Positions 14,222-59,689 of a stretch of 64,000 nucleotides of DNA are shown one piece after another. Under the pieces are notes generated by a model. The model did no database searches. It was not told the origin of the DNA and saw only the letters and a program-made list of their open reading frames with translations. The translations under genes and the position numbers were made by a program. Every line of letters starts with the position of its first letter. Within the stretch, counting starts at the first letter, position 1. This DNA is from an uncultured delta proteobacterium (lineage in GTDB: Bacteria > Myxococcota_A > Polyangia > Polyangiales > B10-G4), in assembly GCA_963727445.1 (NCBI GenBank), contig CAVSGI010000014.1, positions 96,001 to 160,000 on the forward strand, given 5' to 3'.

Positions 14222-15172
14222 ATGAATCGACCCCTCCTCCTCTCCGCCGCTGCCGCCCTCTGGCTGACGGCGGCCCCCGTCGCGCATGCACACGACCACA
14301 GCATCGGCGTGGGCTATCGCTACGGGCACCTGAATACCGGCAGCGATCAGGTCTACGACTTCCACTCGGCCACCGTGCAGTACGCCATGTCCATCGGCGG
14401 CTGGCTGCGCTTCTTCAGCGTCCTCGAGGTCATGATCCCGGCAGTGGGCGTGCAGAACGGGACGAGCTACGACCTGAACAGCACCTACCGCAGCAAGTTC
14501 GGCGCGGACGTCTCCTTCGGCGGAGCGCTCCACTTCCAGCCGCTCGAACGTCTCTTCGTCCTGACCGGCATCGGCCCCCACATGAACGCGATGACCCTCT
14601 CGCACGAGGAGCTGGTCACCTTCAACAGCCTCACCCTCGGCATCACCTCCTTCTCGACGGCGCGCTACGCCATCAACGACTGGCTCGAGACCGGCGCCAA
14701 CCTGACGGTCTCGGTGGACTTCGCCGATCCCCTTCACACCGTCGCCCCGCTCGACTGGGGCGTGCACTTCGCGGTCACGGCGATCGTGGGTGTGCGGCTG
14801 GGTGAAGGGGACGCGCCGGATCTGTCGGAGGACTTGAGAGGGGGGCCGCGGCGAGGGGGGCGGCGGCGGTCGGAGGCGGAGACAGAGACGGAGACGGACG
14901 AGACGGGGACTGAACCGAGCGAGTTGAATGAGGGGAACGGCGCCACCACCGACCGGCCGATGACCGGCGACGGCGCGGGCGCGGGAACGGGAACGGGCGC
15001 GGGAACGGGCGCGGGAACGGGAACGGTTCCTGCGGACCAGGTGGACGAACCCCACGGGGGTGAAGGGCCACGGCCGGATATCCAACGAGAGGGGCCTGCG
15101 CCGACTGCGTCCCCGCCGAACACGACAGCGGGAGCGGGAACGGGCGCGGGCGCGGGCGAGGACGCACCGTGA
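14222..15172 (+). CDS. Putative outer-membrane beta-barrel protein with a low-complexity C-tail carrying an inserted repeat
   Basis: Signal peptide ending AHA, alternating aromatic beta-strands, GT/GA-rich tail. Confidence 0.65.
   Translation: MNRPLLLSAAAALWLTAAPVAHAHDHSIGVGYRYGHLNTGSDQVYDFHSATVQYAMSIGGWLRFFSVLEVMIPAVGVQNGTSYDLNSTYRSKFGADVSFGGALHFQPLERLFVLTGIGPHMNAMTLSHEELVTFNSLTLGITSFSTARYAINDWLETGANLTVSVDFADPLHTVAPLDWGVHFAVTAIVGVRLGEGDAPDLSEDLRGGPRRGGRRRSEAETETETDETGTEPSELNEGNGATTDRPMTGDGAGAGTGTGAGTGAGTGTVPADQVDEPHGGEGPRPDIQREGPAPTASPPNTTAGAGTGAGAGEDAP
15013..15133 (+). repeat. Dispersed ~120-bp intragenic element, copy 1
   Basis: Nearly identical to the reverse complement of 59484-59612 (4 substitutions plus a 3-nt indel in the core); GGGAAC/GGGCGC hexamer flanks. 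Confidence 0.9.
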
Positions 15173-31569: not shown

Positions 31570-31826
31570 CGGGAGCGGGGGCGGGAGCGGGAACGGGAAC
31601 GGGAACGGGAACGGGAACGGGAACGGGAACGGGAATGGGAATGGGAGCGGGAACGGGAATGGGAGCGGGAGCGGGAATGGGAGCGGGAACGGGAACGGGA
31701 ATGGGTGCGGGAATGGGAGCGGGAACGGGAATGGGAGCGGGAACGGGAATGGGTGCGGGAATGGGAATGGGTGCGGGAATGGGAATGGGTGCGGGAATGG
31801 GAATGGGTGCGGGAATGGGTGCGGGG
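31570..31826 (+). repeat. G-rich hexamer microsatellite (GGGAAC/GGGAAT/GGGAGC/GGGTGC), about 43 units
   Basis: Directly visible tandem array; units keep the GGG. Confidence 0.95.
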
Positions 31827-31845
31827 TGAGTCCTTTTGAGCGTGT

Positions 31846-31906
31846 TTCTTGGTCATCGCTGAGACCCCTTCTTGGTTGGGAAAGGGGTCTCAGCGATGAC
31901 CAAGAA
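31846..31906. repeat. 25-bp perfect inverted repeat covering the RBS and start of four-helix-bundle gene A
   Basis: TTCTTGGTCATCGCTGAGACCCCTT (31846-31870) and AAGGGGTCTCAGCGATGACCAAGAA (31882-31906). Confidence 0.95.
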
Positions 31907-32235
31907 CACTCTAATCAGATGATTCATCACAGACTTCGAGTCTGGCAGCGGGCGCATGCGCTCGTAGGGCTCGTGTACGCGAACTTGCCGAAGGATGCGG
32001 AGCTGCGGTCGCAGGTGAAGCGGTCGTCCACCTCGGTCGGGGCGAACATCGCCGAGGGGTGCACGCAGAGCTCACGGGCGATGCGGCGCAAGCACTACGA
32101 GATCGCCCGGGGGTCGGCGGTCGAGACGGTTGCTTGCTCGAACTGGCCGAAGCGACGGGGGATCGCCTGCCCGTCGAGGAGGTCCGGAGCCACGGCGCAG
32201 CCATCGCCGCGATGCTCACGAGAATGCTGCGGTAG
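31896..32235 (+). CDS. Four-helix bundle protein A (23S rRNA IVS protein / Avd-like); indels near 31905 and 32137
   Basis: HRLRVWQRA..L...LP....LRSQVKRSSTSVGANIAEG.....YEIARGSAVE, continuing LELAEATG...AAMLTRMLR*. Confidence 0.85.
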
Positions 32236-32241
32236 ACATTT

Positions 32242-32276
32242 GAGAGCCGGGAGGGTCCTTCGCCCTCCCGGCTCTC
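32242..32276. terminator. 14-bp hairpin between the convergent four-helix-bundle genes
   Basis: GAGAGCCGGGAGGG-TCCTTCG-CCCTCCCGGCTCTC. Confidence 0.7.
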
Positions 32277-32280
32277 GCAC

Positions 32281-33943
<1,663 letters not shown>

Positions 33944-58597: not shown

Positions 58598-59689
58598 TCA
58601 GAGGCCGCCGAGGCGGTACTGAGTGATCAGCCCTGCCAGGACGCTGAAGCTTCCCGTGCGGAACTCGTGGGCGAAGTAGAGACCCGAGCGGACGAAGAGG
58701 GTGAAGTCCCACACCGCGGGAAAGGGTTTGGGCCACCAGGCCATCACGAAGAGCCCCGCCTGGTGCCCGGTGTAGCCCGCGTTCGGGACGTGACGGTACG
58801 AGTCGAACAAGCCGTAGCGAAAGGCGAAGGCATCGGTGACGCGTGTCTCGACTCCGAGGAAAGCCTCGTTGGCGATGATCCAATCCTGCTTACGCATGAT
58901 CGCATCCCATCGCATGTTGAAGTAGTAGCTCGCGTCGCCGATGTCGTAGTAGCTGACGTTGAGGATGCTCAGAAGCAGGATGGCCCAGATGGGGCTCAGC
59001 GCGACCTTCGCGCGAAGGACGGCGTAGAGGTTGAGATTGAAGCCCGTCGCGGTGGTTCCCGCGCCGGCGGGCAGGTCCTCGTTCCGAAAGCCCCCGTGAT
59101 AATCGGTGCGGGGATAGTAGCCGGCGCGGTTGGTGGGAAGCGGCCAGTAGACGAGACCGCTCGCCTCTGCGCGGAACATCAGAAACGACAGCGGTGAGAT
59201 CTGCGCGTAGCCGCCGAGGTGGCTGAAGGCCGGCGAGGTCTCGTTGAGGATCCCGATCTCGACGTTCGTGTAGTCGAAGAGCACGCCCGGCTTTCGGACG
59301 AGCGGAAAGCACATGCCCAGACGCAGCTGGCTGAGCGCCCCGGTCGGATTCGTCTGCACCGCAAAGAGCTGGCTCAACACCCACTGCTCTTTGTATTGCC
59401 CCGCGCAATGACGCCCGTTCTCGCGCAGATACTCAGCGGCGCTGAGATTCTCGCGGCGCAGCACCACGACGTCCTCACCGGATCCCGTTCCCGCTGTCGT
59501 GTTCGGCGTGGACGCAGTCGGCGCGGGCCCCTCTCGTTGGGTATCCGGTGGCCCTTCACCCCCGTGGGGTTCGTCCCCCTGGTCCGCAGGAACCGTTCCC
59601 GTTCCCGTTCCCCTCGGCCCCTCCTGCGCGCGGGCGTTGGTCGCGACCATCAGAGCCAACGAAAGACAGAGTCCCAGCGTCCGAACCAC
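58598..59689 (-). CDS. Putative outer-membrane beta-barrel protein with a repeat inserted after the signal peptide
   Basis: Signal peptide ending ARA-Q, aromatic beta-strands, in-frame repeat near the N-terminus. Confidence 0.65.
   Translation of the reverse strand: MVRTLGLCLSLALMVATNARAQEGPRGTGTGTVPADQGDEPHGGEGPPDTQREGPAPTASTPNTTAGTGSGEDVVVLRRENLSAAEYLRENGRHCAGQYKEQWVLSQLFAVQTNPTGALSQLRLGMCFPLVRKPGVLFDYTNVEIGILNETSPAFSHLGGYAQISPLSFLMFRAEASGLVYWPLPTNRAGYYPRTDYHGGFRNEDLPAGAGTTATGFNLNLYAVLRAKVALSPIWAILLLSILNVSYYDIGDASYYFNMRWDAIMRKQDWIIANEAFLGVETRVTDAFAFRYGLFDSYRHVPNAGYTGHQAGLFVMAWWPKPFPAVWDFTLFVRSGLYFAHEFRTGSFSVLAGLITQYRLGGL
59484..59612 (-). repeat. Dispersed ~120-bp intragenic element, copy 2
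   Basis: Reverse complement matches 15013-15133; GGGAAC flanks. Confidence 0.9.

Follow-up and report, generated by a model that had tools for sequence, protein, structure and literature searches.

A small coding repeat, nested in six-base tandem tracts, in polar linkers of unrelated proteins from one uncultured lineage

The window, the whole stretch of 64,000 nucleotides under analysis, carries two copies of a repeat whose 90-base core recurs, always in the same frame, in genes that are otherwise unrelated. Judged from sequence comparison, the family is real, small and restricted to one uncultured lineage, and the same comparisons show that it has multiple copies in unrelated hosts, all in one frame, that orthologs lack it, that tracts of six-base units lie at the matching empty sites and that selection on the encoded peptide is weak. 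The reading that best accounts for this, to which I give about an even chance, is that the element is passenger DNA copied between hexamer tracts by recombination. The features of the two window copies are as follows.

14222..15172, plus strand: host gene A (316 aa), with a signal peptide, a predicted outer-membrane beta-barrel and a long acidic/Gly-Thr tail that contains the element
14972..15025, plus strand: 5' hexamer tract of copy A, encoding Gly-Ala/Gly-Thr and keeping register with the core
15023..15112, plus strand: element core, copy A, 90 bases or 30 codons, in frame
15113..15133, plus strand: 3' tail of copy A, running into a hexamer tract; the same form occurs in copy B only
15128..15157, plus strand: 3' hexamer tract of copy A
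58598..59689, minus strand: host gene B (363 aa), with a signal peptide, then the element, then a predicted outer-membrane beta-barrel
59489..59509, minus strand: 3' tail of copy B, 21 bases, common to copy A
59510..59596, minus strand: core of the element in copy B, 87 bases, short of copy A by one codon
59594..59611, minus strand: 5' hexamer tract of copy B, three Gly-Thr units

Over 121 aligned bases the two copies are 94.2% identical (E 1.6e-47), with four substitutions and one 3-base gap between them, just as the preliminary description had reported, and the ORF translations confirm that both are sense to their host gene, share one frame and encode the peptide GTGTVPADQ(V/G)DEPHGGEGP(R)PD(I/T)QREGPAPTAS(P/T)PNTTAG. 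The dimensions first given for the element need trimming. The roughly 120 bases hold for the pair A/B, but the core common to all copies is 90 bases, and the donated peptide of about 40 residues, although a common peptide exists, comes to about 30 residues plus Gly-Thr filler with little sign of selection. Similarly, the flanks described as GGGAAC/GGGAGC are indeed hexamers, but the in-frame unit is GGA-ACG (Gly-Thr), a member of a degenerate family that also includes GAG-ACG, GAG-GCG and GAT-TCG. Two DNA runs, neither of which bridges the copy A site, showed no empty allele; a variant of the element's 3' end occurs on one low-depth contig of run X2.

Both host ORFs are long and GC3-rich. Copy A lies in a C-terminal tail and copy B after a signal-peptide-like N-terminus, as previously claimed, and the assignment of both hosts as putative beta-barrels also stands: the model of host B is a beta-barrel of low confidence (mean pLDDT 55, with residues 16-81, which include the insert, below 50) whose top Foldseek matches are all outer-membrane barrels, and residues 20-200 of host A match outer-membrane barrel clusters of the ESM Atlas at 0.96. 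The hosts were correctly called unrelated, since BLASTP finds the insert to be the sole segment that they have in common.

The genome that holds the window, G000 (85.6% complete, 9.5 Mb, 69% GC, more than 250 kinase hits), contains further copies, the two from the window lying on its contig C14; its size, GC content and kinase hits point to a myxobacterium. The same seven full copies emerge from BLASTN, a covariance model and profiles of two kinds, peptide and iterated nucleotide, and a motif search added an eighth.

Full copies: C14:111023 and C14:155596 (the window pair), C15:228539, C9:881215, C10:228880, C13:409618 and C8:565690
Copy with a 39-base internal deletion: C13:400034

None of the eight, the full copies and the deleted one alike, is intergenic, which answers the question of copy number and location that the preliminary description had left to BLASTN. 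All eight are sense and in one frame inside GC3-rich ORFs, three for Ser/Thr kinases, three for predicted outer-membrane proteins, and one each for a TonB-dependent receptor and a DUF2330 protein. Core identities between copies range from 0.97 to 0.70, indicating that copying went on over a long time, and the tree of nine copies is star-like, with five of its six inner branches lacking support. The 5' boundary is sharp in nine of ten DNA copies. The 3' end is ragged: A and B have one tail in common, the C15 and C9 copies another, and the remaining copies differ. Strand bias with respect to GC skew was not found (five of eight G000 copies on the G-rich strand, the skew itself being weak). A faint match at C19:20099 (E 0.07), inside an HNH-like ORF, was left out of the count; this long ORF (C19:21602-19599, minus strand) has a paralog on C20, and its faintly element-like, Pro-rich stretch is mostly missing from that paralog.

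Outside G000, neither a DNA search of 60 relatives (two marginal matches) nor an RNA model (none) produced a true copy, and neither did a peptide profile run against 400 genomes of the order (two marginal matches); on inspection, all four marginal loci were chance. No copy was found in the same-genus genome G001 (86% complete, 590 contigs), though tracts and four-helix genes are present there. A pattern scan of metagenome_contigs gave five matches, two of them real (L014 and L017), both in-frame inserts on contigs that are syntenic with G000 and 77-82% identical to it. The corresponding scan of genome_contigs gave two matches, both chance, and that of viral_contigs none, the pattern being one of 23 fixed positions and therefore blind to diverged copies. 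A peptide search of the viral contigs returned no relative, phages gave no match, and plasmids gave one 33-base match only (E 0.07). Protein searches added five hosts, namely the TPR proteins P0008 (which carries three partial tandem copies) and P0011, the kinases P0003 and P0012, and P0027, while three of seven representative-library matches (P0004, P0005, P0007) were unrelated repeats and were dropped. The DNA copies thus number ten (eight in G000, plus L014 and L017) and the host genes 15 (eight in G000 and seven in related metagenome sequences). By eye, the element lies in frame in a polar linker in all 15, following a signal-peptide-like or transmembrane-like segment or preceding a C-terminal anchor, and such segments suggest that the inserts are extracytoplasmic.

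The tracts are degenerate six-base tandem arrays with units G-N-N-N-C-G, and by this analysis's own definition G000 has 97 of them, 26 labelled non-coding and 71 coding under a crude scheme that calls some cassette arms coding. The largest class of coding-labelled tracts (35 of 71) is in the element's frame and strand, and 19 of these 35 follow a hydrophobic segment, against a background of 17%. GGAACG is the commonest perfect hexamer array in the genome, with 33 loci. At least two tract units occur within about 36 bases of eight of the ten DNA copies, whereas the same test is passed at 0.44% of random sites, at 3.1% of positions in 403 disordered linkers that follow a hydrophobic segment, and at 7.0% in 77 kinase linkers (binomial P at most 2.4e-8, with copies treated as independent). 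Two of the eight G000 copies, C13:409618 and C8, fail the test on both sides; the C15 copy has a unique 5' flank without a tract; and A and B have only about 12 tract bases in common 5' of the core. Among the flanks of all 97 tracts, the element is the sole high-identity cargo common to unrelated genes. No copy lies in a non-coding tract (0 of 10, against 26 of 97 tracts labelled non-coding; about 0.04 by hand calculation).

Some further tracts and repeats deserve mention in their own right. In G001, four perfect hexamer units were matched 249 times, often at contig ends, and there are nine four-helix hits. The flank (C14:205796-205850) of a 48-unit tract at C14:205796 shares a short repeated motif with the region upstream of a Y1-like gene at C9, about 567500-567750. 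In G000, C15:196141-196787 and C9:580625-581065 show 14-base matches that recur about every 211 and 147 bases, a hint of spaced repeat arrays.

Proximity alone does not show that the tract came first, as the arms may travel with the element, and here the empty sites are informative. Orthologs of both window hosts exist without the element, as the preliminary description's mobile repeat would predict. Six homologous rows for host B (two of them nearly identical), 48-63% identical to it, have a gap of 34-44 residues at the element, and the one homolog of host A, 73% identical, ends before the element-bearing tail; a search of G001 with host A did not find this gene. The homologs of host B have acidic linkers with no Gly-Thr tract, so the arms there may have come with the element. 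In the reciprocal direction, six of the relatives' seven hosts have a counterpart in G000 (none is clear for P0012, and that of L017, whose contig holds only the gene's last codons, was assigned by synteny). None of these six counterparts carries the element. Five have a hexamer tract at the matching place, a long one in the cases of P0008, P0003, L014 and L017 and a degenerate one in that of P0011, and the counterpart of P0027 has none. This suggests that at the reciprocal empty sites the tract preceded the element, and the suspected tie between element and tracts now rests on both counts, eight of ten DNA copies adjoining a tract and five of six empty sites holding one. At 48-86% identity between orthologs, the junctions are not readable to the base. 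No filled site is common to different organisms, which fits repeated independent arrival. Apart from the element, the gene at G000 C26, about 12300-12150 (minus strand), and its ortholog L014 have linkers with tracts of the same family in different frames (Gly-Asp/Gly-Asn and Glu-Ala/Glu-Thr), which suggests that the tracts are DNA-level units.

If the element is indeed passenger DNA, it would be a lineage-specific, non-autonomous 90-base segment residing inside six-base tandem tracts. Such tracts are scattered through the genome: between genes they flank the four-helix-bundle cassettes and, at two loci, Y1-transposase genes, and within genes they code for linkers of exported and membrane proteins (Gly-Thr, Glu-Thr, Glu-Ala or Asp-Ser). 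A tract-flanked copy would enter a second tract, or a linker in which a few units match, the units acting as homology arms, presumably through ectopic recombination or gene conversion. Because the element's length is divisible by three, both its ends keep register with the units and most coding tracts are read in one frame, arrival would tend to be sense and in frame; and as one of the other sense frames has a stop (in six of seven full copies) and the other is Arg-rich, wrong-frame arrivals would probably be removed, so that the frame bias would call for no special mechanism. The 30-residue peptide, presumably translated, would then be a tolerated passenger in disordered extracytoplasmic linkers. 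What speaks for recombination is the tract arms in register, the ragged 3' ends with pair-private tails, such as variable crossover points would give, the deletion and duplication derivatives, and the lack of any sign of transposon ends. Against it, the arms are short for RecA-type recombination and two copies have no tracts; passive copying should move any inter-tract segment, yet the element is the sole such cargo; and the element is better kept between organisms than neutral DNA, with no copy in a non-coding tract.

Several of these objections would be met by a miniature non-autonomous element, moved in trans by a sequence-recognising enzyme that inserts it at a tract-unit boundary, a reading that I consider possible, if rather unlikely. 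It would explain the sharp 5' boundary, the fixed rare codons and low divergence between organisms described below, and the element's position as the only cargo of its kind. The enzyme could possibly be the four-helix-bundle system, a RAYT-like Y1 transposase or the product of a gene missing from the assembly, and G000 has 16 four-helix (PF05635) hits and four Y1 transposase hits, with hexamer tracts beside two of the Y1 genes. One such cassette lies in the window.

31572..32833: two-gene four-helix-bundle (PF05635) cassette between tracts of the same hexamer, the tracts being all that it has in common with the element

The suggestion that the element belongs to this four-helix system (31570-32854 in the preliminary description) was not borne out. 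Beyond the tracts, a sensitive profile search found no internal similarity between the element and 11 cassette and transposase regions (best E 0.99, with nothing more than stray 11-mer matches), no copy is present at any of the four Y1 loci examined, and no partner gene with similar ends turned up among the cassette and Y1 loci compared. Only one gene gave a reverse transcriptase hit, and G001, as noted above, has tracts and four-helix genes with no copy found. The anatomy of the element also argues against a dedicated enzyme. Terminal inverted repeats were not found, the only complementary match being of 4 bp and set inside the ends. Neither single copies (z +0.37 to +1.44) nor the alignment (z +0.34 sense, +0.36 antisense) fold better than shuffles, none of the 21 pairs of the consensus fold shows a compensatory change, and the covariation score of that fold was reached by 431 of 500 shuffles. 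The folding and covariation check that had been proposed for the element thus revealed no palindrome, fold signal or covariation. Hairpins are likewise lacking, the 3' end is ragged and strand bias is absent.

At least five copies of a convergent two-gene four-helix cassette, with a perfect hairpin before the plus-strand gene, lie between tracts (window 31572-32833; C14:395910-397231, C25:75640-76943, C6:404841-406734 and C27:289258-291335), and single-gene cassette types on C9 and C12 use other hexamers. Closely related Y1 (RAYT-like) genes at C9:167700-170100 and C10:984900-987000 lie beside degenerate tracts; the C9 gene is bracketed by them and also has two REP-like repeats in inverted orientation. 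More speculatively, and with real doubt, the tracts that arm the cassettes may be the recognition and landing sites of a mobility system of which the element is the minimal non-autonomous passenger, selected at the nucleotide level for movement, the system incidentally shuffling peptides among the linkers of exported proteins and receptor kinases. Were this true, the element would be a natural reporter of the activity of the four-helix-bundle family.

A further reading, an improbable one, takes the element for a short peptide with a function, such as a glycosylation or spacer motif of exported proteins, which recombination spreads and selection on the protein retains. This would account for the 15 of 15 hosts with the element in frame in apparently extracytoplasmic linkers and for the failure to find a non-coding copy, and in older copy pairs pN is somewhat below pS. 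However, six ordinary ortholog pairs taken from the same contigs have pN/pS of 0.18-0.33, whereas the value pooled over 36 copy pairs is 0.74. For the four youngest copies the ranges are 0-0.04 (pS) and 0.03-0.09 (pN), with pN at least equal to pS in five of six pairs. Changes at codon positions 1, 2 and 3 number 18, 17 and 24. Of the 13 residues that are invariant in the nine aligned copies, most vary in the five further proteins, the orthologs do without the element altogether, and the tracts by themselves favour such linkers, as the 19 of 35 in-frame tracts behind hydrophobic segments attest. Rare codons, at 3-18% genome use, have been kept in the nine copies (GTT in 8, CCT in 8, GAA in 9 and in 8 at two positions, CCA in 7 and ACT in 7), which indicates that the segment did not originate as coding sequence of its hosts; together with the pN/pS of 0.74, they indicate that the element behaves as DNA and not as a selected peptide. 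Comparison between organisms shows differences at 31 of 177 four-fold sites (0.18, from non-independent pairs and with pattern columns excluded), against an ortholog pS of 0.33-0.46 in six pairs. Although the numbers are small, this hints at nucleotide-level constraint, in which the sequence matters for spreading, or at horizontal transfer.

There is a slim chance that a constrained source locus outside the assembly, be it a non-coding RNA, the leader of a cassette or a gene in a different frame, keeps reseeding the copies. The assembly is incomplete, the tree is star-like and conservation is at the nucleotide level, as such a source would predict, but changes are spread over all codon positions with no preference for any frame, both true metagenome matches are again in-frame inserts, and Rfam models matched nothing on the element at E up to 10 (nine weak matches at seven loci, and none within 59450-59650). 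A by-eye likeness to the c-di-AMP riboswitch was discarded when its model, RF00379, had no match in G000, and two candidate structures were rejected for want of covariation support. Finally, an assembly chimera, or descent of the segment within paralogs, is barely conceivable: frameshifts in nearby genes do mean that the assembly has errors, but the copies differ by 3-30%, independent datasets hold copies in other genes, and the preliminary description's fear of only two copies in paralogous hosts falls before more than two copies in host families as unrelated as a TonB-dependent receptor, DUF2330, kinases, TPR proteins and barrels. Frameshifts occur in a four-helix gene (window 31919-32233), in a C26 gene at about 12050 and in an OmpA-like gene of C15 at about 226550, and may be assembly errors or broken genes.

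How, then, does the element compare with known repeats? The preliminary description likened it to Rickettsia palindromic elements (RPEs), and as a mobile coding repeat it is indeed dispersed, in frame, in unrelated genes and absent from orthologs, but without a palindrome, fold signal or covariation the likeness stops at the outcome. Both are dispersed repeats (RPEs of about 100-150 bases) that lie in frame in unrelated genes, encode a common peptide, are lineage-restricted and have no known mover nearby (PMC10969869, PMC3733652). RPEs are palindromic and only about half of them are in ORFs (PMC10969869). Unlike RPEs, all ten DNA copies of the element are in ORFs, in one strand and frame, and none is intergenic; the peptide is rich in Pro, Gly and acidic residues, and the sites are hexamer tracts in linkers.

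Small repeats inside ORFs that encode 20-80 residues also include the intragenic REPs (GTAG and CGTC families; PMC3733652) and repeats fused to ORFs, among them BRE, BOX, RUP and REP2 (PMC3184786). REPs, however, are 20-40-base stem-loops, mostly intergenic, whereas the element has no shuffle-supported stem-loop; the intragenic REP list in Additional file 3 of PMC3733652 could bear on precedent. The element's 3' end does contain CGTC, but inside a predicted stem and not as the unpaired tag of REPs. Unlike the REP/RAYT system, the element shows no tie to RAYT-like genes, the four Y1 loci being without a copy, and unlike a MITE it has no terminal inverted repeats. As to target-site duplication, none is visible at the C15 copy with its unique 5' flank, and elsewhere one or more duplicated hexamer units would escape notice in the tract.

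Work by Elhai et al. in 2008 reportedly placed some families of the small dispersed repeats (SDRs) of Nostoc, said to be of 21-27 bases with a common fold, within tandem repeats. Both these and the element are very small repeats residing in another repeat, but the element is 90 bases long, has no supported fold and is so far found only in coding linkers. One of them, SDR5 of Nostoc, inserts precisely into HIP1 (PMC4390886), a precedent for the insertion of one repeat into another. The four-helix (PF05635) cassettes resemble the element in using the same tract units as flanks and in being multi-copy in G000, but they carry genes and perfect hairpins between genes, whereas the element has neither and shows no similarity to them. 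The literature searched, mainly open papers, contained no account of the element or of any coding repeat set within hexamer tracts.

The reach of these findings is limited by the size of the family and its confinement to a single uncultured lineage, with mover and function at candidate level. Nevertheless, the filled and empty orthologous sites offer a direct way to test the movement of the tracts, and perhaps of the four-helix cassettes. If the tracts act as portable homology arms, low-complexity linkers would be sites of exchange between unrelated surface proteins and not products of slippage alone. In-frame intragenic repeats are known, but as hairpins that are mostly intergenic, whereas the element described here is unstructured, is found only in coding sequence and has its position predicted by a tandem-repeat family.
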